Below are positions 1 to 12,983 of a stretch of DNA of 12,983 nt, piece by piece; the stretch's first letter is position 1, and every line of letters begins with the position of its first letter. The stretch spans positions 1 to 12,983 of the IMG/VR virus record IMGVR_UViG_2802429224_000017. One strand, written 5' to 3'. The position numbers and the translations under genes are program-made. The notes beneath the pieces are model-generated. The model was not told the origin of the DNA and made no database searches. It saw only the letters and a list, made by a program, of their open reading frames with translations. Source of the stretch: a virus (Duplodnaviria > Heunggongvirae > Uroviricota > Caudoviricetes).

Positions 1-260
1 TTTTTTTAGATTTTCGTGCGCTTGATCGGATATATGATTTTTGCGGTTTTTGTTCGTTTTTCGGTTTTCGGTGGTCGCTGGTCGCTGGTCTGGCAGCATA
101 GGATCATCCTTTTTCGAAAATCAATGCTTTTTTTTGGAAAGTGCTTAAAAATTATCGTGCTGGCTGAATCAATAACCAGCAAAGGGTATTAAGTGTGGGT
201 GCGTTGAGGATGCCTGACACATCAGAGATGGCGGGAGATTACTCCCCCGCCTAGTCACTC

Positions 261-416
261 TTACTCTCTAGATTCGTAGTCTACGAAAACAGCGACCTCC
301 GTCTGGCCGGTTCGGATTCGTACCTCGCAGAGGTCTTTCCTCATTACCAGCGCCATCGCAATGACGGTTAAACAGATGACGATCAGGGCGATTAACATCG
401 CCTTTTGCTGCTTCAT
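261..416 (-). CDS. hok: Hok/Gef-family type I toxin, 51 aa small membrane protein
   Basis: Translation MKQQKAMLIALIVICLTVIAMALVMRKDLCEVRIRTGQTEVAVFVDYESRE is near-identical in length and sequence pattern to E. coli HokD/RelF and Gef as I recall them; single hydrophobic helix then conserved CEVRIRTGQTEVA motif; SD AAGGAG about 9 nt upstream of ATG at 416. Confidence 0.85.
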   Translation of the reverse strand: MKQQKAMLIALIVICLTVIAMALVMRKDLCEVRIRTGQTEVAVFVDYESRE

Positions 417-473
417 AGCCTGCTTCTCCTTGCCTTTCGGCACGTAAGAGGCTAACCTGATGTTGTCATGCAT
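261..473 (-). CDS. mok: Mok-like in-frame N-terminally extended reading frame overlapping hok (70 aa)
   Basis: In-frame ATG 19 codons upstream of hok ATG (MHDNIRLASYVPKGKEKQA + Hok) with GAGG 8 nt upstream; mirrors the mok/hok arrangement of known hok loci where Mok is an in-frame extension coupling hok translation (recalled, not verified). Confidence 0.45.
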   Translation of the reverse strand: MHDNIRLASYVPKGKEKQAMKQQKAMLIALIVICLTVIAMALVMRKDLCEVRIRTGQTEVAVFVDYESRE

Positions 474-590
474 AGGGAGCCTCAGATTAATGTTAAGCGT
501 CTTGCCGGACGCATAATGTTAACTGGGGCTTTTCTCTATCTGCCTTTTGGTGTTCATGCCTGAGACAGATAGCCTCAAGCACCCGCAACA

Positions 591-618
591 ATTCTACAAA
601 AAATCATCTCAATTTCAA
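591..618 (-). promoter_or_regulatory. Sigma70-type promoter (TTGAAA-16 bp-TAGAAT) immediately downstream of Q stop, reading toward hok; probable hok mRNA promoter
   Basis: On minus strand -35 TTGAAA (plus coords 613-618), 16-bp spacer, -10 TAGAAT (591-596); predicted start about 584 places the RNA 5-prime end at a sequence complementary to the region just beyond the hok 3-prime hairpin. Confidence 0.5.
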
Positions 619-620
619 TT

Positions 621-1031
621 TTACTGTATTTCTGCAACCGACCTTCCGGATGAGCCGCGCCCAACATATCTGTCCATTTCCAGTCTGATATCAAGCATCA
701 TCAACATCCCATCAACTACCCCTTCAGCCTTTTGCAATAAACGTCCAACCCAGCAATCGGAACGCCCATGCTTCTTTGCTAGTGCCATGAACGTCATTCC
801 GAACACATAGTAATCAACCAGTAAGTCATGTAAATCTTTGTTGTTCTTATTCAGCCTGGACATGCACCCGCAAATGACCATTGCGTCATCATCACTACAT
901 TGCGGACGTGATTTAACCTTTGACGGAATCAACCCCTTAAATCCGGCAGCAATGGACGACCAAGTAACATCCTCGTGGTTATTTGCCACCCATGCCCCCC
1001 ACCGTTCTAAAACCATCTGAATATCACGCAT
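621..1031 (-). CDS. Small Q-like late antiterminator (Phage_antitermQ-type, QuuD-like), 136 aa
   Basis: N-terminus [35 protein letters not shown] and Cys-rich [13 protein letters not shown] core match my recollection of small Q-family antiterminators of E. coli cryptic prophages; position downstream of the replication genes fits Q. Not verified by search. Confidence 0.6.
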
Positions 1032-1288
1032 CAGCGCAGTACCTCCTGCACCAGTTTTTCAAACTTACCAACTTTGGTTTCCAGCTCTGCCACACAATCC
1101 ACCAGCTCATCCACTGCTTTTTGTGCGCGATGTTTTGCCTGCATCAGTTCCCTGAGCGCTGGCACCATATCCCGACGAATGGCATCTTTTGTTACACCTG
1201 ATTTTTCCAGTTGTTCCGCCTGTCGCAACATTTCCTGTGCCTGTTTACGTAATTGCTCAGGGGTAAAAGTCATTGTCTGGTTGCTCAA
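1031..1288 (-). CDS. Hypothetical small coiled-coil protein (85 aa; alternative start at 1273)
   Basis: ORF on same strand as flanking genes, start overlaps DnaB-like stop (ATGA) and stop overlaps Q start; charged, helix-rich sequence; no recognisable family. Confidence 0.45.
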
Positions 1289-2676
1289 AAGAAACGCTCC
1301 ATCTTACTGCTGTCAGTTCGTTTGTTGCTGTATCTGCGCGGCTGGGGCTGCTGCATTGGGGTGGAAAGAATCTGTGCGCTTTCCTGATCCACAGGCAGAA
1401 AATGTCCGTTATAAAAACGCCGATAAATCGTCCCCAGAGAACCGTTACGTTGTTTCGTGATATTGATTTCTGCGATGCCCCTGGCCTGCGTATCCGGGTT
1501 GTACACTTCATCCCTGTAAAGCATCAGAATGATGTCTGCATCCGCCTCTATTTCTCCGGAATTTTTCAGGTCTGAGTTCATGGGGCGTTTATTGGGTCTG
1601 AACTCCACACCGCGGGAGAGCTGGCTCAGCGCAATCAACGGAAAACCACCGGATTTTGCCAGGCCTTTAAGCCCCTTTGAGATTTCACCAACGGCAAGGT
1701 CATGACGCCCCGTGGTTCGGGTTTTTATCAGTCCGAGATAATCAACCACCACCAGCGCCGTTTCCGGATGTTTAATCAGGTGGTGTTTCGTTGTTGCGCA
1801 TATCTCGTCAATGGTCAGGTTCGCCTGGTCCACCATCCAGATATTGCGCCCGGTCATCCGCCCCACTCCTTGTGAGAAACGTGCCCAGTCTTCGTCTTCA
1901 AAGTGAGCGACAGATTTCAGGCGTGATACCGGCATTCCTCCAGCCGCAGATACCATGCGTTCACCAATCTGGATGTTCGCCATTTCCATTGTGAACAGAA
2001 GAACACCATGCCCCTGCTCAGTCACCTTGTCGATGATATCCAGCGCCAGTTCGGTTTTGCCCATTGACGGACGAGCCGCAATAAATACCAGGTCGCCGGG
2101 CTCCATGCCGCCTGTTTTTGCGTCCAGTTCATCAATACCGGTCATCAACGTTCTGGATTTTTCCAGTCCCTGATTCCGGCATTCAACACGCTCAACCACT
2201 TCCGGAAGCACATCATCAATATGTACCGGCTGAATAACGCCCTTTTCCGTCGACAATGAGGCCATCATGTTCTGCGCATCCTTCAGGGCATCTTCAGCCG
2301 CTTCACAGGTATGCGCATCACGTAATTTCTGCAGCGCCTCATTCAGCGTTTTTTCTGCATCGCGCAATGCGGCATTGCGACGCAACGCCGCAACATAGTG
2401 CTCCAGTGAAGACTTCACCCAGGTTTTACGCCCGGTATCAGTAATCACCGGAGCAAGTTCCGGCATCTCATTACACAACAGCACAGGATCAATCACACCT
2501 GAAACACGGGCCTGTCTGCAGATGCCTGTGTAGATATCCCGATACGCTCGTACAGAAAAAACGTCCGCTGGCAGTGTGGCCAGAATATCCAACACTTCAG
2601 GATCTGCCCCACGCAGAAAGAACGCGCCAATGACAGCGCCTTCAAGGTCATCGTTACGCCAGACTGGTGTTGTCAT
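1285..2676 (-). CDS. DnaB-like replicative DNA helicase (463 aa from ATG at 2676)
   Basis: Walker A GDLVFIAARPSMGKTELALDI, later LVVVDYLGLI and RecA-fold motifs typical of the DnaB family; SD GAGGTG upstream of ATG 2676, which overlaps the stop of the upstream loader gene. The track start at 2715 is probably too far upstream. Confidence 0.85.
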   Translation of the reverse strand: MTTPVWRNDDLEGAVIGAFFLRGADPEVLDILATLPADVFSVRAYRDIYTGICRQARVSGVIDPVLLCNEMPELAPVITDTGRKTWVKSSLEHYVAALRRNAALRDAEKTLNEALQKLRDAHTCEAAEDALKDAQNMMASLSTEKGVIQPVHIDDVLPEVVERVECRNQGLEKSRTLMTGIDELDAKTGGMEPGDLVFIAARPSMGKTELALDIIDKVTEQGHGVLLFTMEMANIQIGERMVSAAGGMPVSRLKSVAHFEDEDWARFSQGVGRMTGRNIWMVDQANLTIDEICATTKHHLIKHPETALVVVDYLGLIKTRTTGRHDLAVGEISKGLKGLAKSGGFPLIALSQLSRGVEFRPNKRPMNSDLKNSGEIEADADIILMLYRDEVYNPDTQARGIAEINITKQRNGSLGTIYRRFYNGHFLPVDQESAQILSTPMQQPQPRRYSNKRTDSSKMERFF

Positions 2677-3563
2677 GCAGCCACACCTCTGATATGTACA
2701 CGGTAGCTTTCCCAACCAAACACCAGGCAGTTACGCCCACCATCAGTAACGCGATCCACAATCCGTTCACCAATGGACTCCTTAAGCTGGTCAAACGTCA
2801 GATTGCTGATCAAAATTGTCGGTAAAACGCTTTCGTAACGTGCATTGATGATTTCCTGCAGGATGGTTATCTCTGTTGGCGTACCGAACTGCACACCAAC
2901 CTCATCGATGATGAGCAGGTCCAGCGATACAAAATGGTCAATAACTTCATCTTCAGTGCGTTCAGAATTGTGACGCCAGGTATTTTTCACAGCGCGGGTC
3001 AGTCGCATGACATCCGTAATTTCGACAGTCGCCAGGTGGTGGCGAATAATATTTTTTGCCATTGATACAGCCAGGTGATTTTTCCCGGTACCGCAATTGC
3101 CAATCATGATCATGCTGGTACCCGCAGCAAGACACTTCTCCCATGAACTGGCATAGCGCCGACAAGCCTCAAGATTTCTCTGTGCGTCAGCATTCACAGC
3201 CTGGTAGTTCTCAAACTCGCAGTCCTGGAAGCGGCGGGCAATACCAGCTCTGTCAAGTAATTCATGAACTTTCAGGATGCGTAACGCCTCCTGTACCTGA
3301 TCCAGTTCATTCGCAATGCAGATCGGGCAACCAGACACCCGTTTGATGGTTTCCCCACGAACATCTGGCCCTTTCAACACCAGACGTGTGTATTTCCCGT
3401 GTTTCTCACACTCAGCAGTTTCCTCGCTTGTCAGCCAGTGTTCACAGCGCCACGGACGCTTCCCGGCACGGGCAAACTGCATCTCCTCCTCCAGTTCCGC
3501 CCTGCGGTTGAGCAATTGCGCTTTGTCGTGTTGTGCGTAGTGTTTTTTTAACTGTTCAAACAT
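2673..3563 (-). CDS. DnaC/IstB-like AAA+ helicase loader with Cys-rich N-terminal region (296 aa)
   Basis: Walker A GNCGTGKNHLAVSMA and Walker B LLIIDEVG; N-terminal CEHW...CEKH...CPIC arrangement suggests a zinc-binding module; SD GAGGTGA 7 nt upstream of ATG. Confidence 0.8.
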   Translation of the reverse strand: MFEQLKKHYAQHDKAQLLNRRAELEEEMQFARAGKRPWRCEHWLTSEETAECEKHGKYTRLVLKGPDVRGETIKRVSGCPICIANELDQVQEALRILKVHELLDRAGIARRFQDCEFENYQAVNADAQRNLEACRRYASSWEKCLAAGTSMIMIGNCGTGKNHLAVSMAKNIIRHHLATVEITDVMRLTRAVKNTWRHNSERTEDEVIDHFVSLDLLIIDEVGVQFGTPTEITILQEIINARYESVLPTILISNLTFDQLKESIGERIVDRVTDGGRNCLVFGWESYRVHIRGVAA

Positions 3564-3582
3564 TGTTCATCACCTCGAAAAA

Positions 3583-4392
3583 TCACCAGTTGAAGTTCGT
3601 TGAACCGTAGTCCTGCTCACTGAATCCCGAGATCGGGAGGCCGGTAGTTCGCCTACCTCCAGGAGCGGCTGGCTGTTGCCAGGATTCCTCGAAATGGCGA
3701 TCGGGTCCAAAGAACGTCGCGGCCTGCTTCACGAACTGTGTGCCGGTATTTCCTGTAGCACGTACCCAGGCGGCATACCGCTTCACGCCATCAAGCATGG
3801 TCTCCGGTTTTATTCCCTCCCTGATACGGGCTTTCCAGGCTTTGAAGGCTGCTGACTTGGAATTGCCACCAGCACGTTTGGGATATTCCTGCCAGGCCTG
3901 TTCAAATTCCGGTGAATATTCCTGTCGGGCAGAACGCGCTGGTGCAGACGCGTCAGCGGATGCGCCAATAGTTGATTCATTGACTGGTTCTTTGACTGGT
4001 TCAAAAGAGTGACTGGTTCTGGGTGAATCTCCTGCACTACCCCCTGGTGCAACTCCTGCACCACCTGGTGAATTTGCTGCACTAGGTAGTGAATTATTTG
4101 CACTACCACCTGGTGAATCTTTTGCACCATCAAGACGAAGAAGATAAATATTGCTCGAGTTCCCTTTTTCACCTTTCCGGGAAACTTTTTTTACCAGTCC
4201 AGATTCACAAAGAGCCGTAATATGATTCATCACAGAACGTTTGCTAATCTCGCACTGATCAGCAATATGCTGATAACTGGGCCAACACTCGCCCTGATCG
4301 CTGGCATTATCAGCCAGCTTAATCAGAACCAGTTTTCGCAACGGATTTCCCACACGAATTTTCATCGCTTTCACCATCAGGTCCATGCTCAT
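3583..4392 (-). CDS. Phage replication initiator-like protein: N-terminal winged-HTH domain, Pro/Gly/Ser-rich linker, C-terminal domain (269 aa)
   Basis: N-terminus LRKLVLIKLADNASDQGECWPSYQHIADQCEISKRSVMNHITALCESGLV is a typical replication-protein winged HTH; gene lies immediately upstream of the DnaC-like and DnaB-like genes; the linker is encoded by iteron-like DNA repeats. Confidence 0.6.
   Translation of the reverse strand: MSMDLMVKAMKIRVGNPLRKLVLIKLADNASDQGECWPSYQHIADQCEISKRSVMNHITALCESGLVKKVSRKGEKGNSSNIYLLRLDGAKDSPGGSANNSLPSAANSPGGAGVAPGGSAGDSPRTSHSFEPVKEPVNESTIGASADASAPARSARQEYSPEFEQAWQEYPKRAGGNSKSAAFKAWKARIREGIKPETMLDGVKRYAAWVRATGNTGTQFVKQAATFFGPDRHFEESWQQPAAPGGRRTTGLPISGFSEQDYGSTNFNW
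3981..4130. repeat. Iteron-like direct repeats inside the initiator gene (candidate origin of replication)
   Basis: Five roughly 22-bp direct repeats with consensus TGGTGAAT-n4-TGCACTACC at about 4020, 4044, 4065, 4087 and 4109, preceded by three copies of TGACTGGTTC (3981, 3993, 4010). This resembles the lambda arrangement of ori iterons within gene O. Confidence 0.5.
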
Positions 4393-4613
4393 AACACACC
4401 TCCCAGGCGTTTAAACATTTTTCCGGACTGAAACGCCATCAACGGATAGCTAATGGTGTAGTTACGCCCCAGTAATTCACACACAACTTTCTGGCTTTCG
4501 GTGCTGACCAGGCAAACACGCAGAACGTAGCCGTTGCTGGTGGCGAACCACTGCCCCACACGGGGGCAACGGTTGTATCGGTGACACAGGGAATTAACGA
4601 TGCGACGAATCAT
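4389..4613 (-). CDS. Hypothetical small Cys-containing protein (74 aa from ATG at 4613)
   Basis: ORF translationally coupled at both ends (ATGA overlaps with the 220-aa gene upstream and the initiator gene downstream); no family recognised. Confidence 0.4.
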   Translation of the reverse strand: MIRRIVNSLCHRYNRCPRVGQWFATSNGYVLRVCLVSTESQKVVCELLGRNYTISYPLMAFQSGKMFKRLGGVL

Positions 4614-5272
4614 GGGCGCACCTCCCATTGATTACGGCGGAAAGCGGTGTGACTGAGACTGGTTTCAGCCTCATGAAATGCTTCAATACAGCTCTCGTAG
4701 TACCGCATTGTGCGCAGACTTAACCCAAGCTGAAGCATCATCAGGCCATCAAGGGTGATGTAATAACCACGCAGGGAGTCACCATAGATGTGATAAGTGC
4801 CCGGTATGAAATTGCGGGTAAAAAAATCGCGCGAGCAGTTCAGATACTCGATTTTGTCGACGATGTTCTGGTGCATGCGCTTGAAGTGGCAGGCAACATG
4901 CAGGGAGAAAATAACAGCTTTGCCGTTGACGACTTCGATTTTCAGGTATGGGGAAGTTGGGACTGTAGCCATGATGGCAGCCTCCGATAACAGTGAATTA
5001 CCTTCACCACCGGAAACGCCAATTTCGCTGGTGGTGAACTGAACGGGGTTGGCGTAACCGGCGTTATCGGAAACCGGCGCACCTTTCGGTGCCCCCGTCC
5101 AGCCCACCATAATTTGGGTGTGCGCAGACGCAGACGACAAAAAAGACGCTGGCGCGTCATATATCGCCGATAACATTTCCAGGACGCCAATCCCGGCACC
5201 CGCTTTATAAGGTGCAGGGACAGTGTAACGTCCCGAAATTGCAGAATCAATATTTAGGCTTGAAACATTCAT
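4610..5272 (-). CDS. Hypothetical protein (220 aa), Gly/Ala/Ser-rich N-terminal half
   Basis: Longest ORF in the interval, same strand as the operon, stop overlaps the next start; no recognisable motifs. Confidence 0.5.
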   Translation of the reverse strand: MNVSSLNIDSAISGRYTVPAPYKAGAGIGVLEMLSAIYDAPASFLSSASAHTQIMVGWTGAPKGAPVSDNAGYANPVQFTTSEIGVSGGEGNSLLSEAAIMATVPTSPYLKIEVVNGKAVIFSLHVACHFKRMHQNIVDKIEYLNCSRDFFTRNFIPGTYHIYGDSLRGYYITLDGLMMLQLGLSLRTMRYYESCIEAFHEAETSLSHTAFRRNQWEVRP

Positions 5273-5350
5273 ATGCTTACTGGTATTTTTATTGATGTTC
5301 TTGGATTCTTGGGCCTGCTTTATGCAGTTGCCTGTATCAACGTTGAGCGA

Positions 5351-5375
5351 GCCGGGTCACTACCCGGCTTTTTTT
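5351..5375 (+). terminator. Intrinsic terminator-like hairpin (GCCGGGT-CACT-ACCCGGC followed by T7) in plus-strand orientation
   Basis: Perfect 7-bp GC-rich stem at 5351-5368 followed directly by TTTTTTT (5369-5375) on the plus strand, abutting the Rha stop codon; on the minus strand the hairpin is preceded by an A-run, so it may act bidirectionally or end an antisense RNA. Confidence 0.45.
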
Positions 5376-6082
5376 CACCGCTGCCAACCAATAACCTGAA
5401 ATAACCCCATTTTCGAGTGATACCAGCGAGTCCCTCGCGGTTCTGCTTCCTCCATAACCCGATAAAAAGCAGCCATAAACGGTTCCACGGCAACAATTGC
5501 ACGACGCGACAACAATCCGTCCGGCGTCATGAACTCGTGGGTATCGGTAGGAATTTGATAGGCATTCACCAGATTGCGGCATTTATCATCTGACAAACCG
5601 GTTTTCGCTTTCAGTTGGCGATATCCGGCATAGCCCTCACGAATGGTGCCCTTTTTGATTTGCTCAACTGTTTCGGCAACGTGGCTGACTTTTTCTTCCA
5701 CCTGAGTGATCCGTTTCTGCTGACGAACAGCTTCAAGAGCCATCGCAGCAACCATTTCGATTTCGCTCATTGGCTTACGGATCTGTTCTTCCAGTTCGCG
5801 CCAGCGATCTACCAGGCGAGCAGTGAATTCAGGACAGAGCTGTGCGACGACAATGATGCTGTCGCGCTTACCTTGTTCTCCTTCAAACAGGTAATGCTCA
5901 TATTGAACTTTAAAACCTAAGTTATTGATTCTTTCGGAAACCTCAATTTGAGGAGACCGGACAACGCCACCTTTGGCTAATGTTTCAATAGTGCGTTTCA
6001 CATTGTCATGACGTTTACCCACCAGCTCTGCAATTTCAACGCTGGTCATGGATACTTTGCCGTTAAAAATTGCGGTGTTCAT
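5375..6082 (-). CDS. Phage regulatory protein, Rha family (235 aa)
   Basis: N-terminus VSMTSVEIAELVGKRHDNVKRTIETL matches the conserved Rha (Phage_pRha) signature; sits directly downstream of the cro-like gene; SD AGGAGA upstream, start overlaps cro-like stop. Confidence 0.8.
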   Translation of the reverse strand: MNTAIFNGKVSMTSVEIAELVGKRHDNVKRTIETLAKGGVVRSPQIEVSERINNLGFKVQYEHYLFEGEQGKRDSIIVVAQLCPEFTARLVDRWRELEEQIRKPMSEIEMVAAMALEAVRQQKRITQVEEKVSHVAETVEQIKKGTIREGYAGYRQLKAKTGLSDDKCRNLVNAYQIPTDTHEFMTPDGLLSRRAIVAVEPFMAAFYRVMEEAEPRGTRWYHSKMGLFQVIGWQR

Positions 6083-6369
6083 TGTTTATCTCCTGCGTGT
6101 ATTCCATCCGCTCTGTGTGGTGAACTTGGATTTAGGCTTTTGCGTAACAAGTTAGGAATTCCATCTTCAGGGTGAGGATAAAGATCTGGCCTTAAGCCAT
6201 GAGGCGTAACCTTCCATGCAACTACTTCACATACTCGTAAAACGAAACGAGCAGGAATTGTGCTTTTTGAAAACCACTGATTCACCGCTTGCGGCGTCAC
6301 ACCAAGATTTCGCGCTATGGCATTTTGCGCAATTAATGCACGAAGTTTGTCGTAATCATTTCCTTTCAT
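6079..6369 (-). CDS. Cro-like HTH regulator of the YdaS type (96 aa)
   Basis: NLGVTPQAVNQWFSKSTIP...GLRPD resembles YdaS/Cro-type small HTH proteins; divergently transcribed from the cI-like repressor gene across a 133-bp AT-rich intergenic region. Confidence 0.65.
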   Translation of the reverse strand: MKGNDYDKLRALIAQNAIARNLGVTPQAVNQWFSKSTIPARFVLRVCEVVAWKVTPHGLRPDLYPHPEDGIPNLLRKSLNPSSPHRADGIHAGDKQ

Positions 6370-6502
6370 AACAAAGCACCAATATTAACTTTATAAATCA
6401 AGAATACATCAAGTTTAAATTAACATGCAAGTTGCAAAAGGATCGAATACACTAAAATCAAGTAAAGATTTATCCTTGTAAAGAAACCCACAGGATTTGG
6501 TC
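6370..6502. promoter_or_regulatory. Immunity-region intergenic control region (divergent cI-like and cro-like promoters, candidate operators)
   Basis: AT-rich 133-bp spacer between divergent repressor genes; repeated ATCAAG(T) motifs at 6397, 6408 and 6457 and the palindrome TGCAAGTTGCA at 6428-6438; exact -10/-35 elements not assigned with confidence. Confidence 0.5.
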
Positions 6503-7192
6503 ATGAAGAACGTCAAAAACACGGAAAATCGAATAGCCGCGATGCTGAAAGCAAAAGGATGGACTCAGGCTCAACTGGCCCGCAAGTTAGGTGTGAGTGC
6601 GCAATCAGTGCAGTACTGGACAACAGGAAAAACATTTCCACGGAGTGATAAGCTCGCGCATTTATCAGAGATTAGCGGTTATCCACAATCCTGGTTCTTA
6701 GGTGAAGACACCTCACCAACCTTTTCCTCGCAAGAGAAACACCAGACAAGAACAGATAGCGTCGTGTTTAATGTCCTTGATGTTGAGTTTAGTTGCGGTG
6801 ATGGAACTCATGTCCGTGGTGACTTGATAGATGTAGTGCGCTCAATAGAACTTGATCCTGAATATGCCCGACGTCTTGTTGGAAATCGGGCATTCAAAAA
6901 TATAGAAATAGGTAACGCCAGAGGAGACAGTATGGCTCCCACAATCTCACCTGGCGACCTTCTTTTTCTTGATAAGACAGTAACTTATTTTGATGGCGAT
7001 GGTATTTATGCATTTTGTTTTGATGGAGAATGCTACGTGAAAAGGCTTCAAAAAATTGGAAGCAAAATCATGGTGTTATCTGATAACCCCAATTATCAAC
7101 CATGGAGCATCGAAAAAGAGGGGTTAGCTCTGCTTTATATCCAGTCTAAAGTGATCTCATCAGTACCATTCAACATAAACAGATTTGGTTAG
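6503..7192 (+). CDS. cI-like prophage repressor (N-terminal XRE-type HTH, C-terminal LexA/S24 autopeptidase domain), 229 aa
   Basis: HTH WTQAQLARKLGVSAQSVQYW; C-terminal GDSMAP (catalytic Ser) and CYVKRL (Lys) dyad typical of LexA/cI/UmuD; AGGA 6 nt upstream of ATG at 6503 (the track used TTG at 6497). Confidence 0.9.
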   Translation: MKNVKNTENRIAAMLKAKGWTQAQLARKLGVSAQSVQYWTTGKTFPRSDKLAHLSEISGYPQSWFLGEDTSPTFSSQEKHQTRTDSVVFNVLDVEFSCGDGTHVRGDLIDVVRSIELDPEYARRLVGNRAFKNIEIGNARGDSMAPTISPGDLLFLDKTVTYFDGDGIYAFCFDGECYVKRLQKIGSKIMVLSDNPNYQPWSIEKEGLALLYIQSKVISSVPFNINRFG

Positions 7193-7203
7193 TCTTTGAT
7201 TTT

Positions 7204-7226
7204 AACGGGCTTTGCCCGTTTTTTTT
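7204..7226 (+). terminator. Rho-independent terminator downstream of the repressor gene
   Basis: AACGGGC-TTT-GCCCGTT hairpin (7204-7220) followed by a run of 8 T, 12 nt after the repressor stop codon. Confidence 0.7.
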
Positions 7227-7256
7227 CTGCCTGAAATATACGATATCAATTTTTTC

Positions 7257-7285
7257 TTGACAGCCTATTTCCCAAAGCATAATAT
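7257..7285 (+). promoter_or_regulatory. Near-consensus sigma70 promoter (TTGACA-17 bp-TAATAT), pL-like early-left promoter
   Basis: TTGACA at 7257-7262, 17-bp spacer, TAATAT at 7280-7285; dyad ATCAAT-n7-TTGAT (7292-7308) overlaps the predicted start and is a candidate operator. Confidence 0.6.
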
Positions 7286-7338
7286 CGCACCATCAATTAT
7301 AACTTGATTTGATTCAATTTAAAATTGTTGGTGGATAT

Positions 7339-7887
7339 ATGAAGACACTAAAAGCAACTCCAGAAACAACTAATTTTATCAACTGCGGCTGTGTTACGCT
7401 TAAGGGCTTAGAACTTGATTCCTTTGCATTAAATATTGCAAATTTGCTAAGTGCTGTACGCACATTCCATCTTCTGGATTGTGCTCGCTCAAAGGAACTG
7501 GGCATTGAGGTAATGGAATTTATCCATGAATATGCTCTATCTGCTGCTTCTCCTGCACAACAAAAACAATCCTTCCCTGAAAGCTGGCTGGTTAACCTTC
7601 GCACCCAACGCGAAGCCTGCGGCTTAACAACCGCCGAACTCGCCAGGCTGCTCGCTCTTGATGAAGAAATCATCATCCAGTGGGAGAGCGGAGAGTATGA
7701 ACCAACCATCAGTATGCTTATCCCACTGGCAAATATTCTTGGCTGCGATCCGATGTGGCTGTTAACTGGTGAGGTTACTCCTCCGGAGCAACCAAAAAGT
7801 GAGGAGCAGCAACACCATGACGCATCTCAACAAGTTTGCTCCTTATCTCGCGAAGCTCTTCTACGGAAGAACCAATACCAATGGTGA
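7339..7887 (+). CDS. Two-domain protein: unknown N-terminal domain plus C-terminal XRE-family HTH (182 aa)
   Basis: C-terminal LTTAELARLLALDEEIIIQWESGEYEPTISMLIPLANILGCDPMWLL is an XRE-type HTH; N-terminal roughly 90 aa share a domain with the next gene; first gene after the pL-like promoter; GGTGGA upstream of ATG 7339. The C-terminal 37 codons overlap a minus-strand ORF with a good SD. Confidence 0.55.
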   Translation: MKTLKATPETTNFINCGCVTLKGLELDSFALNIANLLSAVRTFHLLDCARSKELGIEVMEFIHEYALSAASPAQQKQSFPESWLVNLRTQREACGLTTAELARLLALDEEIIIQWESGEYEPTISMLIPLANILGCDPMWLLTGEVTPPEQPKSEEQQHHDASQQVCSLSREALLRKNQYQW

Positions 7888-8015
7888 CATAATCGCCGCT
7901 TCGCCCCTCAAGGTACATGCGAACATTTTTATCAATCATTGCGGAAACAGTCTCAATATGAAAACACTTCTGAGACTCGCTATATAGCAGAACATATAAG
8001 TCAGCTGAGGAAGCC

Positions 8016-8381
8016 ATGAAAAAGTTCGAAAACATAACTGTTCTCCATGTTGATGACTTTGATTATACAAACCCGGACCTTCTCCCGGAGGTTGTAAAGG
8101 CAATAGATGTTGCCGATATAGTGATTAGAGGAAAGAGAATTGTCAAAAACAGGCTCGCATGCACTTCAGGAGCAATGACAGAAACAACCTCACAACAAGA
8201 TGATTATGAAGGCATTTGTCCGGAGCCTGATTCATTTGCGGTAAATGTTTATCATTTATTGCATGCAACACAGGTATTACATATGTCCAGTAATCACGAA
8301 ACAAAAGCACTTGGCAGCGAAATTCTGAATTTTGCATGTGAATATGCAAAAGCTGCTGCCGAAAAAGAATTAGCGCAATAA
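8016..8381 (+). CDS. Hypothetical protein (121 aa) whose C-terminal about 50 aa are paralogous to the N-terminal domain of the preceding HTH protein
   Basis: By-eye alignment DSFAVNVYHLLHATQVLHMSSNHETKALGSEILNFACEYAKAAA versus DSFALNIANLLSAVRTFHLLDCARSKELGIEVMEFIHEYALSAA (about 22 of 47 identical); SD GAGGAAG upstream. Confidence 0.55.
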   Translation: MKKFENITVLHVDDFDYTNPDLLPEVVKAIDVADIVIRGKRIVKNRLACTSGAMTETTSQQDDYEGICPEPDSFAVNVYHLLHATQVLHMSSNHETKALGSEILNFACEYAKAAAEKELAQ

Positions 8382-8577
8382 CAATAAATATTCCCTGAAT
8401 GTTTATTACGGTTTTATCGCCGGGGATTGTTGCAACCTTTATTCGCAGGAGATTATGTTATGACTTTCCTGAAACATAAGGCATCGTATAAAACTGCCTG
8501 CCTCATTGCACAACATGGAGATTCTTATCTTCATATAGCCAACCTGTATTTGCGCAAAGCATATGGGAGATAAATAA

Positions 8578-8766
8578 ATGAAAGAAAAACAACAGAATAT
8601 AACACATAAAAAAGTAAGAGTGTTGCTAACCATTGAAAATGGTGAAGTAATTTACTCAAAACATCTGCTGGATAATGAATTCGTTGGCTGCATGGATACA
8701 TTTCTGTGGATGGCAAAAAGAGCTGGCTACACGATTATTCCACCAGCAAAGGAGCAAATATTATGA
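8578..8766 (+). CDS. Hypothetical small protein (62 aa)
   Basis: GGGAGA 7 nt upstream of ATG; stop overlaps the start of the next gene (ATGA), indicating translational coupling. Confidence 0.45.
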   Translation: MKEKQQNITHKKVRVLLTIENGEVIYSKHLLDNEFVGCMDTFLWMAKRAGYTIIPPAKEQIL

Positions 8767-9344
8767 ATCATTCAGAGTTCCGACCAGAAGTAACGCCACA
8801 TGGCATAAAAATTGGTAATACAACCATTGATTATATTCAGGCCGTACAGCGGCTTAATGATGGCGAATTCGATAATCCATACTGGCACGGTTTAAGAATC
8901 ATGCAATGTCTTGCCGAAGCTGATGATGCCGGATTGCTGGGAAGATTTTCAGTCGATCTGAAGGTTGCTCAGTGGCGCTGGCTGTATGTGATGAAGTTTA
9001 TCAGTGAAGAGGAAGACAAGAACGGCACTATTGATATCCCTAACGATAACGGGACGACAGATCGCGCAGTTATTTACAAGGGGAAACATGGTTGCATAAG
9101 TATATACCCAGGACCACTTCGCATTGCCCTGCAAAACCATGTCGAATGGGGATTTATTGAAAAATATGGCGAAACTGAAGGCATGGGGCGAGTTCTGTTT
9201 CTATATCAAAAAATGCTCATTGCAGATCTTGATAATGGTTTCATTCTCTCTGCTATGGGGCGCGAAGGGCTTGAACTCCTTCTGGATAAAATGATTAACG
9301 ACCTGAATACTCATGGTATGCCAGAAGCGCCAGTGACACATTAA
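8763..9344 (+). CDS. Hypothetical protein (193 aa from ATG at 8763)
   Basis: AAGGAG 7-8 nt upstream of ATG 8763 (the track start at 8706 lacks an SD); ORF uninterrupted for 193 codons; no family recognised. Confidence 0.6.
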   Translation: MNHSEFRPEVTPHGIKIGNTTIDYIQAVQRLNDGEFDNPYWHGLRIMQCLAEADDAGLLGRFSVDLKVAQWRWLYVMKFISEEEDKNGTIDIPNDNGTTDRAVIYKGKHGCISIYPGPLRIALQNHVEWGFIEKYGETEGMGRVLFLYQKMLIADLDNGFILSAMGREGLELLLDKMINDLNTHGMPEAPVTH

Positions 9345-9520
9345 ATATTAAGAAGAAAATAACTCTTCCGTTTTTTACTAACCGTTTATATGAAAAGCAA
9401 CCGTGAATTAAACAGAGTAAAACTGATTTTAATCCTTGCCACAGTACTGACACTAACTGAAATCATTATTCTCTTTATTGCGCTGTCAGTCGGTTAAAAA
9501 TATCGGGATACCACAGACCA

Positions 9521-9709
9521 ATGAGACTGTATTTCACAATAGTAATTTTACTGGCAATTATCGCATGCATTTACGGATTACTTGTTCCGTTCCTTATATC
9601 CATGAAGGATACGATAGCAGTTATTTCTGGCTTTGCACTGGCGTTTCTGACCCCGCCCTGCATTTATGCCATTTACAAGGGTCTTTCTTTCACTAAGGAT
9701 AAAAGATGA
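9521..9709 (+). CDS. Small two-helix integral membrane protein (62 aa), translationally coupled to the SPFH lipoprotein gene
   Basis: Two hydrophobic stretches (FTIVILLAIIACIYGLLVPFLI and AVISGFALAFLTPPCIYAIY); stop TGA overlaps the ATG of the downstream gene (ATGA at 9706-9709). Confidence 0.45.
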   Translation: MRLYFTIVILLAIIACIYGLLVPFLISMKDTIAVISGFALAFLTPPCIYAIYKGLSFTKDKR

Positions 9710-10533
9710 AAAAAATCATTTTTGCTTTAGCCATTGTTCTGCCGACTATTGGCCTTGTCGGTTGCGATCGCGTTGAACCAGGTAATGTTGGCATCAAGGT
9801 AAATAAACTGGGCGACGACAAAGGCGTCGGTGAGGTGGTCGGTGTTGGTCGCTACTGGACTGGCTGGAATACTGAAGTTTATATCTTCCCCACCTTCAAA
9901 CAAATGAAGACCTACGATGAACCGTTCAGTTTCCAGATGAGTGACGGTACAACCATCGGCTATCACATTGGCGTAGCCTACAAAGTTGATCCATCCAAAG
10001 TTACCACGGTGTTTCAGACCTACCGCAAAGGCGTGGATGACATTACAGACACCGACCTGCGCCAGAAGATCGCCGACGCACTCAACCGACTGGCCAGCAA
10101 AATGACCACTGACAAATTTATCGACGGCGGCAAGTCTGAGCTGCTGGATGAAGCTCTTAAAGACATTCAGGCAGAGATGACACCTATCGGTATTCAGGTA
10201 ATGAGCCTCTCATATGTGGGTAAGCCGGAGTACCCGCCTACTGTTATCGACAGCATTAATGCCAAAGTCACGGCGAACCAGAAAACACTGCAGCGCGAGC
10301 AGGAAGTTAAACAGCGCGAAGCGGAAGCCAACATGTTGCGCGCGGAAGCTGCCGGACAGGCTGATGCGATTCGCACAAAAGCCCAGGCTGAAGCCGACGC
10401 CATTCGTTTACGCGGTGAAGCTCTGCGCCAGAACCCCGGTGTTATGGAGCTGGAAGCCATCAATAAATGGAACGGCACACTGCCGCAATACATGACCAGC
10501 GGTGCTAATACACCATTTATCCAGGTTAAATAA
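9706..10533 (+). CDS. SPFH/band-7 (stomatin-prohibitin-flotillin-HflKC) domain lipoprotein, predicted inner-membrane anchored (275 aa)
   Basis: Signal peptide with lipobox LVGC (Cys20) followed by Asp at +2; central SPFH-like core and C-terminal Ala/Glu/Arg-rich coiled coil (REQEVKQREAEANMLRAEAAGQADAIRTKAQAEADAIRLRGEALRQ) characteristic of band-7 proteins. Confidence 0.8.
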   Translation: MKKIIFALAIVLPTIGLVGCDRVEPGNVGIKVNKLGDDKGVGEVVGVGRYWTGWNTEVYIFPTFKQMKTYDEPFSFQMSDGTTIGYHIGVAYKVDPSKVTTVFQTYRKGVDDITDTDLRQKIADALNRLASKMTTDKFIDGGKSELLDEALKDIQAEMTPIGIQVMSLSYVGKPEYPPTVIDSINAKVTANQKTLQREQEVKQREAEANMLRAEAAGQADAIRTKAQAEADAIRLRGEALRQNPGVMELEAINKWNGTLPQYMTSGANTPFIQVK

Positions 10534-10573
10534 CTTATATGCCCGGCAGGCCGCCGGGCTAAGGGAAATGCAG

Positions 10574-10945
10574 ATGAACACCCAGAATACTCAACCGCAA
10601 ATAATGAACTATGACCCAAATCTGACGTCATGCGGACGCATGGCAAAACAAACCGTTCGATTAACTTTCGGACTATGGGAATACCGCGAAACATTCGAAG
10701 TCACTGTCGGCGGCAATCTGACCGGACTGGATGTTATCAGTTGCGCTATTGAAAGCCTGTACGCAACGCTACCTTATGAAGAAGTCCAGAATGAGCGCAC
10801 AGGGAGAACGGATATCATGGCTACCATTAATATTGGCGAACTGACATGCCAGGATGAAGACCTGTCCGGAGAGCTCTGGCTTGCCGGGATGCTTATCTCA
10901 GCAGAAATTATCAGTATTGAACCCGCTATAAACATACGGCTCTGA
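10574..10945 (+). CDS. Hypothetical protein (123 aa from ATG at 10574)
   Basis: AAGGGA 7 nt upstream of ATG 10574; the track start at 10502 would overlap the SPFH gene and a GC-rich hairpin; no family recognised. Confidence 0.5.
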   Translation: MNTQNTQPQIMNYDPNLTSCGRMAKQTVRLTFGLWEYRETFEVTVGGNLTGLDVISCAIESLYATLPYEEVQNERTGRTDIMATINIGELTCQDEDLSGELWLAGMLISAEIISIEPAINIRL

Positions 10946-10976
10946 AGTTCTCACTATTCAGAGGGCAGGAGAAAAA

Positions 10977-11219
10977 ATGTTCGCTTTGATTAATCAGGGA
11001 CAACTGTATACCGACAGTGCCGGTTACCCGGTAAAAATTATTCGCTGCATAAATAACACAGTGTTGTACAAAAGAATGGATGGGCGAACACAGTCGGTAA
11101 AAATAAACGATTTTAATGAACTGTTTGAACGACTCGATCACCAGGAATACCGACAAATTCTGGCAGAAACAGAACAGGAAACTCATCTGAAAAAATTACG
11201 GGCTATGAAAAGGAAATAA
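10977..11219 (+). CDS. Hypothetical small protein (80 aa)
   Basis: GGAG-containing SD (GGCAGGAGAAAAAATG) upstream; compact basic/acidic small protein typical of xis-proximal phage genes. Confidence 0.5.
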   Translation: MFALINQGQLYTDSAGYPVKIIRCINNTVLYKRMDGRTQSVKINDFNELFERLDHQEYRQILAETEQETHLKKLRAMKRK

Positions 11220-11222
11220 AGA

Positions 11223-11369
11223 ATGAACAAAGCGTTTGAGCTATGGGTACGCCAGCGTTACGGCAATCGCTATGACCTGACGCGAGATGTTGACGGTTTC
11301 TACTGCCGTGAAATTGTGAAACGAATGTTTGAAGTGTGGTGCCACTGCCGTGGGCTGAGTGTTGTGTGA
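11223..11369 (+). CDS. Hypothetical very small protein (48 aa), below the ORF-track length cutoff
   Basis: Manual translation from ATG 11223: MNKAFELWVRQRYGNRYDLTRDVDGFYCREIVKRMFEVWCHCRGLSVV, stop TGA 11367-11369; AAAGGAAA upstream; fills the gap between the flanking genes on the same strand. Confidence 0.3.
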   Translation: MNKAFELWVRQRYGNRYDLTRDVDGFYCREIVKRMFEVWCHCRGLSVV

Positions 11370-11377
11370 GGTAATGC

Positions 11378-11614
11378 ATGGGCAATGTGATTCAACTGGC
11401 TCCCAATGAATGGGTTTGTGAAAGCGTTCTTATCGCAATTACCGGGCTCAAACCAGGCACAATTCTCCGGGCCCGGAAAGAATGCTGGATGGTAGGAAGA
11501 GAGTATATTCACGTATCGCCTGACGGTAATCCAAAACCTTCCAGCGAATGTATGTATAACAGAAAAGCAATCGATGCCTGGGTCGCTTCAATGAAAAACA
11601 AACAACCCAGGTGA
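11378..11614 (+). CDS. xis: Excisionase-like protein (78 aa)
   Basis: Small protein immediately upstream of the integrase on the same strand; sequence consistent with the enterobacterial prophage excisionase-like family; GAGGT 7 nt upstream of ATG. Confidence 0.65.
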   Translation: MGNVIQLAPNEWVCESVLIAITGLKPGTILRARKECWMVGREYIHVSPDGNPKPSSECMYNRKAIDAWVASMKNKQPR

Positions 11615-11669
11615 TTTAATACCATGAAATATGTAAGCTCGTATCGCTCTTGGGCGTCTGGAGGTATCG

Positions 11670-12983
11670 ATGGATAAAGTCAAATATCCAACAGGCGTCG
11701 AAAACCACGGTGGCACATTACGCATCTGGTTTAATTTTAAAGGTAAACGTGTCAGGGAAAACCTTGGTGTCCCTGACACTGCCAAGAACAGGAAGATCGC
11801 CGGAGAGCTGCGGACATCTGTATGTTTTGCCATTCGTACAGGAAACTTTGATTACGCTGCGCAGTTCCCTGACTCTCCTAACCTCAGGGCTTTTGGGGTA
11901 AATAAAAAAGAAATTACGGTGAAAGAGCTTGAAGAAAAGTGGCTGGATCTGAAACGCATGGAAATCTCTGCAAATGCATTCAATCGCTATGAATCCGTTG
12001 CAAGAACGATGGTTCCGAAAATTGGAGGTAGCAGACTGGTGTCAACGGTGACCAAAGAGGAATTGCTGTATATCAGGAAAGATTTGCTGACCGGATATCA
12101 GAATTCAACGAAAGACAAAGCACCAGCAAGAGGACGGAGCGTCGTTACTGTAAATTATTATATGACGACAATCGCTGGAATGTTTCAGTTTGCTGCAGAT
12201 CACGGTTACTTAGAAGCAAATCCCTTCGAGGGAATTAAGCCTCTTAAAAGAGCCAGGGCAGAGCCAGATCCGCTAACTCGTGACGAATTTATTCGCCTGA
12301 TAGATGCTTGCCGGCATCAGCAGACAAAAAACCTGTGGTCATTGGCTGTGTACACAGGAATGCGTCATGGTGAACTGGTCTCCCTGGCCTGGGAAGATAT
12401 CGATCTGAAAGCAGGAACAATTACTATCAGGCGCAATTATACGAAACTCGGTGAGTTCACTCTACCTAAAACTGAAGCAAGTACAAACAGGGTTGTGCAT
12501 CTTATCCAGCCCGCTATCAGTGTCCTGAAAAATCAGGCTGAAATGACAAGACTGGGTAAGCAGCACCACATCAAGGTTCAACTACGTGAATATGGACGTT
12601 CAGTGAATCATGAATGTACTTTCGTATTTAACCCCCAGGTGGTTAGAAAAAGCAAACAGGTAGGTTTTATCTACAAGGTAGATTCCATTGGCGACTCATG
12701 GGAAACAGCCATTAAACGTGCAGGCATCAGGCATCGAAAGGCATACCAGTCACGACACACTTATGCGTGCTGGTCATTATCTGCCGGAGCAAATCCAAGC
12801 TTCATTGCCAGCCAGATGGGCCATGCAAGTGCCCAGATGGTGTTCAATGTATACGGAGCATGGATGACTGACAGCAATGCAGAACAGATCGCAATGCTGA
12901 ATCAGAAGCTGGCAGATTATGTCCCAATGATGTCCCATAGTCACCAAAGTGACACAAGAGGCCTATTAAAATCAGTGGGTTAG
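11670..12983 (+). CDS. int: Tyrosine-family site-specific integrase (437 aa)
   Basis: C-terminal catalytic region with conserved Arg (GMRHGE), His-x-x-Arg (SRHTYA) and Tyr nucleophile (VYGAW); GGAGGT SD; stop TAG is the last three bases of the window. Confidence 0.9.
   Translation: MDKVKYPTGVENHGGTLRIWFNFKGKRVRENLGVPDTAKNRKIAGELRTSVCFAIRTGNFDYAAQFPDSPNLRAFGVNKKEITVKELEEKWLDLKRMEISANAFNRYESVARTMVPKIGGSRLVSTVTKEELLYIRKDLLTGYQNSTKDKAPARGRSVVTVNYYMTTIAGMFQFAADHGYLEANPFEGIKPLKRARAEPDPLTRDEFIRLIDACRHQQTKNLWSLAVYTGMRHGELVSLAWEDIDLKAGTITIRRNYTKLGEFTLPKTEASTNRVVHLIQPAISVLKNQAEMTRLGKQHHIKVQLREYGRSVNHECTFVFNPQVVRKSKQVGFIYKVDSIGDSWETAIKRAGIRHRKAYQSRHTYACWSLSAGANPSFIASQMGHASAQMVFNVYGAWMTDSNAEQIAMLNQKLADYVPMMSHSHQSDTRGLLKSVG

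Follow-up and report, generated by a model that had tools for sequence, protein, structure and literature searches.

A candidate OOP-like antisense RNA gene between rha and isrK in a lambdoid prophage of Escherichia coli

The stretch of DNA analysed here (positions 1 to 12,983 of the IMG/VR record IMGVR_UViG_2802429224_000017, hereafter the window) comes from a small lambdoid prophage of Escherichia coli that resembles phiP27, and comprises its immunity and early genes. A discrete spacer module of 123 base pairs (bp; positions 5252-5374) lies between the stop codon of a gene for a Rha-family regulator and the -35 hexamer of the probable promoter of isrK, a small RNA gene. With moderate confidence, we propose that this spacer is a self-contained gene on the plus strand for a cis-antisense RNA of about 80 nucleotides (nt), which would be directed against the early-right (pR-type) operon and would resemble the OOP RNA of phage lambda by its layout. 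The spacer carries a predicted promoter and a predicted terminator that are suitably spaced on the strand that has no protein gene at this spot, and this unit exactly fills a mosaic module whose borders are the Rha stop codon and the isrK -35 hexamer. The unit is a plausible, predicted addition to the known cis-antisense small RNAs of phages, credible and restricted to one family of E. coli prophages.

Promoter, terminator and predicted product

The intrinsic terminator of the unit is composed of a stem at 5349-5370 with nine pairs, six of them G-C, whose arms GAGCCGGGT and ACCCGGCTT enclose the loop CACT, and of a run of seven T residues (5369-5375). Among the 22 terminator-like sites of the window it ranks first; its hairpin energy of -15.8 kcal/mol (z = -4.4) was equalled in none of 200 shuffles, and the genuine oop terminator of lambda, folded alongside, gave -14.8 kcal/mol. 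A G+C-rich stem, a short loop and a U-tract on one strand are the features of an intrinsic (Rho-independent) terminator, and since the minus strand has A7 before the hairpin and CTCGCTCAACG without a U-tract after it, the element at 5349-5375 is, as judged from its sequence, a terminator in the plus direction only. The last T of the run (5375) pairs with the A of the Rha stop codon (5375-5377). The initial annotation of this DNA had already placed a G+C-rich stem with T7 at 5351-5375 on the plus strand, and its presence there was confirmed.

Upstream of this terminator, at a distance of about 60 nt, a candidate sigma-70 promoter consists of the -35 hexamer TTGAAA (5260-5265), a spacer of 18 bp and the extended -10 element TGgTATTTT (5281-5289), in which the TG occupies 5281-5282 and the hexamer TATTTT 5284-5289. 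Both hexamers and their spacing had been proposed in the initial annotation and were found as described, and the TG of the extended -10 was present in addition; the overlap with the start codon of an annotated open reading frame (ORF) of 220 codons, also proposed there, was confirmed in that its ATG (5270-5272) falls within the promoter spacer. The candidate matches the consensus at 9 of 12 positions and is the sole one with a TG among the 13 promoter-like sites of the window. Since 13 such sites do not exceed the number obtained in shuffles (19.7 +/- 4.3), the match is weak on its own. Calculated from the same scan, the expected number of matches of at least 9/12 within a band of about 50 nt upstream of a given terminator is about 0.04, and about 0.002 if the TG is required as well. 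When applied to lambda as a control, the scanner recovered the terminator t_o and the promoter pO (TTGAGT-17-CATAAT, TG, 9/12), so that the candidate scores like the promoter of a genuine unit.

The predicted RNA (5294-5375, plus strand, about 80 nt) would start 5-8 nt past the -10 hexamer, at 5294-5297, and end in the T-run. The segment 5295-5376 folds with -29.9 kcal/mol (z = -3.6). Near the predicted 5' end lies the block GTTCTTGGAT (5297-5306), which is single-stranded in the folds and occurs once in the window. It is followed by an imperfect hairpin (5310-5334) with a lower stem, a small bulge, an upper stem and a U-rich loop, and then by the terminator hairpin. In the sequence type of the window, type A, the block is part of a tandem repeat, TTCTTGG-a-TTCTTGG (5298-5312, plus strand), the second copy of which supplies the 5' half of the central hairpin and is degenerate in the related types B and C described below. 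Between the central hairpin and the terminator, at 5337-5346, types A and B contain the perfect 10-bp palindrome TCAACGTTGA, which is probably not essential because it is absent from type C.

The sole perfect complement of the predicted RNA is the intercistronic stretch between rha and isrK in a transcript that reads through from cro and rha. The overlap with rha amounts to 1-3 nt at most, where the end of the T-run meets the stop codon, and the start of the 220-codon ORF is missed, as the predicted start site lies beyond its ATG. The claim of the initial annotation that the RNA is antisense to the junction of rha and the 220-codon gene thus applies to the rha-isrK intercistronic stretch and neither to the Rha coding end, apart from the stop codon, nor to the start or ribosome-binding site of the downstream ORF. 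That ORF was moreover misjudged as the neighbour of the unit: isrK and the gene of a second RNA, C4, occupy its N-terminal half, so that the true neighbour is the probable isrK promoter.

A permissive Rfam scan of positions 4800-5900 yielded no family for the plus-strand unit (best E = 0.4, far below gathering); its best plus-strand matches, AS-pc01 (21.6 bits against a gathering threshold of 79) and SorY/SorX, were at chance level, and sar gave none. This silence says nothing about OOP, since Rfam contains no OOP model and the oop gene of lambda itself gets no match.

A peptide as the product of this DNA can practically be discounted. A plus-strand ORF for a hydrophobic peptide of 43 residues (MLTGIFIDVLGFLGLLYAVACI...) does exist at 5273-5404 and its first 22 residues resemble a membrane helix, but its ATG is located in the promoter spacer and precedes every predicted start site, the terminator falls inside the ORF, a Pfam match is missing, and in the most frequent type, C, the ATG is replaced by ATA and a stop codon comes early.

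Distribution and conservation of the spacer

The spacer is present in 237 of 5426 complete E. coli genomes (about 4%), in every case complete and flanked by Rha and the isrK ("ash") module, and also in nine sequenced phages, seven of which are Stx2a- or Stx2d-converting. Carriers include E. coli MS8345 (NZ_CP025401 2000763-2000885), SE11 (NC_011415 2159340-2159473) and CE10 (NC_017646 2510048-2510176) as well as phage Stx2_112808. Independent mobility of the spacer in the manner of a moron is unsupported, as it was always found in this one place. The borders of the module are marked by the loss of homology in other arrangements: where a DUF4222 gene or a gene for a BRO-N antirepressor stands before the isrK module in other prophages, homology to the window ends at about 5251, and where Rha genes stand in other contexts, it is lost at about 5380. 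Pattern scans of IMG/VR based on the promoter and on the terminator returned essentially the same set of about 100 loci, and a scan of metagenomes gave 35 contigs with the same three types and no new variant, besides chance matches; in both collections the unit was complete throughout. In 185,579 species genomes (one per species), the pattern of seed plus terminator produced only chance matches in unrelated taxa, which places the unit in E. coli-type prophages only.

Three types can be distinguished among the genomes, namely type A as in the window (n = 5), type B (n = 28, about 82% identical to A) and type C (n = 204, about 72% identical to A), and these differ from one another more than the flanking genes do (about 86-95% identical). 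The positions predicted to be functional were invariant in 30 of 37 cases and all others in 33 of 87 (Fisher p = 1e-5), the functional set being defined from the window alone. BLAST provided the first copies of types B and C, but the larger sets stem from pattern scans in which some of these bases are preset. The count of 30 is conservative because a misalignment of the type C terminator by one column scores conserved stem bases as changed.

Within the promoter, the hexamers and the TG are invariant at 13 of 14 positions. The -35 hexamer TTGAAA is the same in types A, B and C, a single one of the approximately 100 IMG/VR loci carrying TTGGAA instead, and TGnTATnTT is kept in the three types together with the 18-bp spacing, the lone hexamer change being at the tolerant position 4. 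Insertions and deletions are found directly after the -10 element and within the RNA body, never inside the promoter spacer. The block at the predicted 5' end is unchanged in all types, while its flanks vary and take up insertions and deletions. Conservation of the hairpin in related prophages had been suggested as a check in the initial annotation, and it is borne out for the terminator: the stem GTTGAGnGAGCCGGG-loop-CCCGGC is kept in all three types with a variable loop, a run of 6-9 T residues follows in all copies, and in one variant (L002) the top pair covaries from T:A to C:G. The central hairpin recurs at the same place with a different sequence in each type (A, GGGC-CUGC/GCAG-GCC; B, GGC-ACUUC/GAAGU-GCC; C, GGAGC-GUUUU/GAAAC-GCUCC), a comparison made by hand from folds of single sequences, which is weaker evidence than covariation in an alignment. 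RNAalifold, applied to a sequence-based alignment, was uninformative on covariation because type C is misaligned in it.

Possible action, relation to known antisense RNAs and alternative readings

If the unit is active, sigma-70 RNA polymerase would start at TTGAAA-18-TGgTATTTT, near 5294-5297, and would stop about 80 nt further on at the strong terminator, whose U-run abuts the rha stop codon. As the terminator would stop the RNA at the end of rha, no antisense transcription would enter rha and cro and no sense transcription would reach cI. The product would expose the invariant single-stranded 5' block GUUCUUGGAU, followed by the central hairpin and by the terminator hairpin with its U7. Its pairing zone, the geometry of which entails perfect complementarity, would be the part of the cro-rha read-through transcript that lies just before the isrK terminator, the C4 gate, the antirepressor gene, the replication genes and Q. 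By analogy with lambda OOP, the RNA would act in cis by formation of a long duplex that is cut by RNase III; such a cut would destabilise the 3' end of the cro-rha message and uncouple it from the antirepressor, replication and Q genes further down. Interference by convergent transcription would be added, and the net effect would be that leaky or early rightward expression is damped.

The likeness to lambda OOP concerns several aspects of the layout. Both transcripts are short (77 nt for OOP, about 80 nt predicted here), both have a sigma-70 promoter with an extended -10 element and a strong intrinsic terminator, and both are oriented against the early-right operon just past the regulatory gene that follows cro, which is cII in lambda and rha in the window. 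In each case the promoter extends over the start codon annotated for the following rightward ORF, and the RNA has an unpaired 5' portion followed by a central and a terminator hairpin; the scanner gave both promoters the same score (9/12 plus TG), and the energies of the terminators are similar. On the other hand, OOP covers about 55 nt of the coding end of cII, whereas the predicted RNA reaches the rha stop codon only; the upstream gene encodes a regulator of the Rha/Roi type and not cII; and the downstream neighbour is the isrK-C4-antirepressor module, the O-like gene (start at 4392) being about 900 bp away and not adjacent. A comparison of the family alignment with lambda 37900-39200 by blastn-short and nhmmer revealed no homology to oop (best E = 0.1, outside oop). 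At the level of sequence, the unit therefore shares with OOP a sigma-70 promoter and an intrinsic terminator opposite the early-right operon, and differs from it in the three features of upstream coding-end overlap, junction with the O gene and sequence similarity. What holds of the OOP-like antisense RNA put forward in the initial annotation is accordingly the compact promoter-terminator unit, the product of about 80 nt and the position after a regulatory gene. Positional analogues of OOP have a precedent in OOP-BTP1 of the Salmonella prophage BTP1, which is OOP-like by position, expressed according to RNA-seq and overlaps the 3' end of cII (Owen et al. 2020, PMC7067206); both are positional analogues in lambdoid prophages other than lambda, although the RNA of the window is predicted only and has no coding overlap.

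A second comparison is with the sar RNA of the P22 immI region, also a small antisense RNA whose promoter is located near or inside the start of the antirepressor unit, which is convergent with the antirepressor operon and which ends at a terminator in the upstream intergenic space. However, sar pairs with the ribosome-binding site of ant, and the predicted RNA (5294-5375) covers none, the likely true Shine-Dalgarno sequence of the antirepressor gene (4982-4986) being about 300 nt away. For this reason, the unit is not sar-like.

Several observations weigh against an antisense RNA gene. As promoter-like matches are not enriched in the window, the promoter is supported mainly by its conservation, and the invariant TCATAT within its spacer could owe its conservation to the ATG of the annotated ORF instead. 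All copies are close relatives, of three types and from E. coli-type prophages only, so that conservation and linkage are partly due to descent. In an Stx1a phage Rha is joined directly to Ant, with 2 bp in between and no spacer, and the unit is thus dispensable in a Rha-Ant arrangement. On the minus strand the central hairpin is at least as stable as on the plus strand; for type C, the values are -15.1 kcal/mol on the minus strand (z = -4.6) and -11.8 kcal/mol on the plus strand. Of the variants that wobble pairing tolerates on a single strand only, three favour plus and two minus. Since neither the folding of the hairpin nor these variants separate the strands, the strand assignment is based on the T-run and the promoter geometry. 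The predicted RNA covers no coding sequence or ribosome-binding site, which makes an OOP-style effect on a protein less direct. Finally, searches of a literature library for isrK, C4, OOP and small RNAs of Stx phages yielded no report of an RNA at this site, and neither the Gifsy-1 IsrK paper (PMC4825925) nor a 2025 review on phage small RNAs mentions a divergent RNA upstream of isrK.

Among the alternatives, the one that best survives is that the spacer acts as an insulator only, a reading which we regard as unlikely but credible. The hairpin and T-run would then block stray antisense transcription into rha, cro and cI, originating from inside the antirepressor and replication genes or divergently from the isrK promoter, and the promoter match would be incidental, with no discrete functional RNA. 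This would agree with the terminator being the strongest and most strand-specific feature of the spacer and with promoter-like matches of such quality being common by chance. It would also agree with the situation in phages of the phiP27 type, where a different plus-strand terminator marks this boundary of Rha: phiP27 and 26 E. coli genomes (at least 99% identical) have a spacer of 52 bp after Rha and then a BRO-N antirepressor gene, and this spacer contains the hairpin GGCCGG-ttttctct-GCCGGCC (-15.7 kcal/mol) followed by TTTCTTATTT, which is unrelated to the terminator of the window and has its T-rich tail on the plus strand only. As a plus-strand terminator, GGCCGGttttctctGCCGGCC and then TTTCTTATTT, it is located at 700-800 in locus L007 and at 3955-4050 in L009 (phiP27). 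Because an unrelated terminator occupies the same boundary, selection for halting plus-strand transcription at the end of Rha looks real, though in view of the Stx1a phage it is not universal. The phiP27-type terminator also speaks for the proposed antisense RNA gene. An insulator would, however, need only about 35 bp, and another 90 bp are always kept intact, the invariant parts of which are precisely the hexamers, the TG, the 18-bp spacing and the 10-nt block; in addition, no further plus-strand promoter-like site occurs within 2 kb upstream. As a separate observation, the phiP27-type junction has a weak match TTGATT-18-TGaTATTGT inside the start of the BRO-N gene, which would give an RNA of about 55 nt over the BRO-N Shine-Dalgarno sequence and start codon, a geometry closer to that of P22 sar.

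A function of the minus strand appears somewhat less probable. It could reside in RNA structures of the cro-rha read-through transcript, such as a stabilising 3' hairpin after the rha stop codon or a processing or Rho-loading region, or in DNA sites ahead of the isrK promoter to which a regulator or the alpha subunits of RNA polymerase would bind. Both hairpins form on that RNA, the central one of type C being more stable there, two type C variants keep pairing on the minus strand only, and the spacer covers -36 to -160 relative to the probable isrK promoter. Three other variants, however, keep pairing on the plus strand only, and other phages have a working isrK module that lacks this upstream DNA, homology ending at the -35 hexamer. 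The T6-9 run, which is confined to the plus strand, and the conserved geometry of -35, TG and -10 would be left unexplained.

It is improbable, in our view, that the RNA is real but mainly acts in trans, using the block GUUCUUGGAU as a seed and the U7 terminator as a handle for Hfq or ProQ, with messages of the host or other phage messages as targets. The predicted RNA shares with typical trans-acting small RNAs of enterobacteria a 5' end that is invariant and unpaired, a body that varies and a strong terminator ending in a long U-tail, and in a lysogen with pR switched off there would be scant target in cis. Against this, no site in the 13 kb of the window beats shuffles (best site other than the cis target -25.3 kcal/mol, mean best of shuffles -26.6 kcal/mol), and no significant pairing was obtained with isrK, C4, the antirepressor leader or the starts of cro, cI, rha and O (all z > -1.3). 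Were it nevertheless to hold, the RNA would be a third, trans-acting player expressed from the lysogen, and a single control region of 90 bp would launch two opposing regulatory RNAs, isrK being the other, which would jointly set the gate to the antirepressor gene, the replication genes and Q in this family of E. coli prophages, Stx2-converting ones among them.

Provided that the cis-antisense RNA is real, it would be an undescribed regulator placed where early rightward transcripts pass from the immunity genes into those for the antirepressor, replication and Q. In the Stx2a- and Stx2d-converting carriers, a tuning of early-right read-through would bear on induction and hence on toxin release. 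The unit would furthermore represent a second OOP layout unrelated in sequence to the first, suggesting that the arrangement rather than the sequence is selected.

The isrK-C4-antirepressor switch and the surrounding early region

The isrK gene with its own terminator (5139-5215, minus strand; Rfam RF01394, 63.7 bits against a gathering threshold of 50) and the gene of the C4 antisense RNA (5027-5114, minus strand; RF01695, 82.8 bits against 45) form the module downstream of the spacer. The probable isrK promoter is TTGATT-17-TACACT (5250-5222, minus strand) with G5215 as start; it matches the consensus at 8 of 12 positions, which is below the cut-off of the scanner, and its position was set by the start of the Rfam isrK match. 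It would be arranged back-to-back with the candidate plus-strand promoter, their -35 hexamers being 9 bp apart, and such a pairing of a plus-strand unit with the isrK promoter is undescribed.

The two RNA genes underlie the N-terminal half of the annotated 220-codon ORF (5272-4610, minus strand, "ash family"), and the Pfam match to Phage_ASH (residues 16-108) spans the same bases. For this reason, the family call may mostly reflect translated RNA genes that are conserved; that one gene call covers two known RNA genes matters for the annotation of these prophages. The isrK start lies downstream of the ATG at 5272, which lacks a convincing Shine-Dalgarno sequence. The true protein start is likely to be the ATG at 4972, which is preceded at a distance of 9 nt by GGAGG (4986-4982) and would give an antirepressor-like protein of 120 amino acids with a Rha domain (4610-4972, minus strand; Pfam Phage_pRha, E = 8.6e-7). 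An in-frame ATG at 5110 would yield an orf45-like leader fused to the antirepressor.

The C4 loops ACGCCAA and CCGATAAC are complementary to the sites 5190-5184 and 5174-5167 in isrK as well as to 5022-5016 and 4991-4983, the last of which overlaps the GGAGG; the target sequences, present as two pairs on the minus strand, are TTGGCGT and GTTATCGG. The locus thus has the composition of a P1 immI or IsrK-C4 module, that is, a C4 RNA and paired a/b targets of which one pair lies over the downstream Shine-Dalgarno sequence. The a/b target logic is the same as for c4 of P1 and P7, but here it would act directly on the 120-residue Rha-domain protein, with no separate icd-like gene. The IsrK-orf45/STnc1160-AnrP locus of Gifsy-1 (PMC4825925) follows this logic too, and the module of the window carries isrK, C4 and both target pairs. 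The plus-strand unit, on the opposite strand and upstream of the isrK promoter, has no described equivalent in P1 or Gifsy-1, where antQ is located upstream of isrK.

The early-right operon starts on the minus strand with a cro-like gene (6369-6079), the end of which overlaps the gene of the 235-residue Rha-family regulator (5375-6082); relatives of the latter are annotated as Rha or Roi, and the gene is convergent with the predicted RNA. The 220-codon ORF is followed by an ORF of 79 codons, an O-like replication gene (4392-3583), a DnaC-like gene, DnaB and the Q antiterminator gene (1031-621). The whole run from cro to Q (621-6369) appears to be a single rightward operon that crosses the isrK terminator and the C4 gate, and no N or cII homologue was recognised among the genes of the window. 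Because of these two properties, the isrK/C4 module may gate the replication and late genes in addition to the antirepressor, in analogy to the CI RNA of P4.

On the plus strand are the genes for the cI-like S24 repressor (6497-7192), an SPFH protein (9706-10533) and the integrase (11670-12983). A search for repressor operators in the spacer (5252-5374) found none; repeats resembling ATCAA-N7-TTGAT are located in the cI-cro and pL regions. Directly after the cI-like gene there is a strong plus-strand terminator with T8 (7204-7220), and downstream of it a near-consensus plus-strand promoter, TTGACA-17-TAATAT (7257-7285), is flanked by two 17-bp inverted repeats ATCAA-N7-TTGAT (7245-7261 and 7292-7308), which resemble repressor operators at a promoter of the pL type. 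At the other end of the region, the Q gene is adjoined by a toxin-antisense pair of the hok/sok type on the minus strand, consisting of Hok/Gef (473-261) and a sok RNA (584-411, 117.5 bits).

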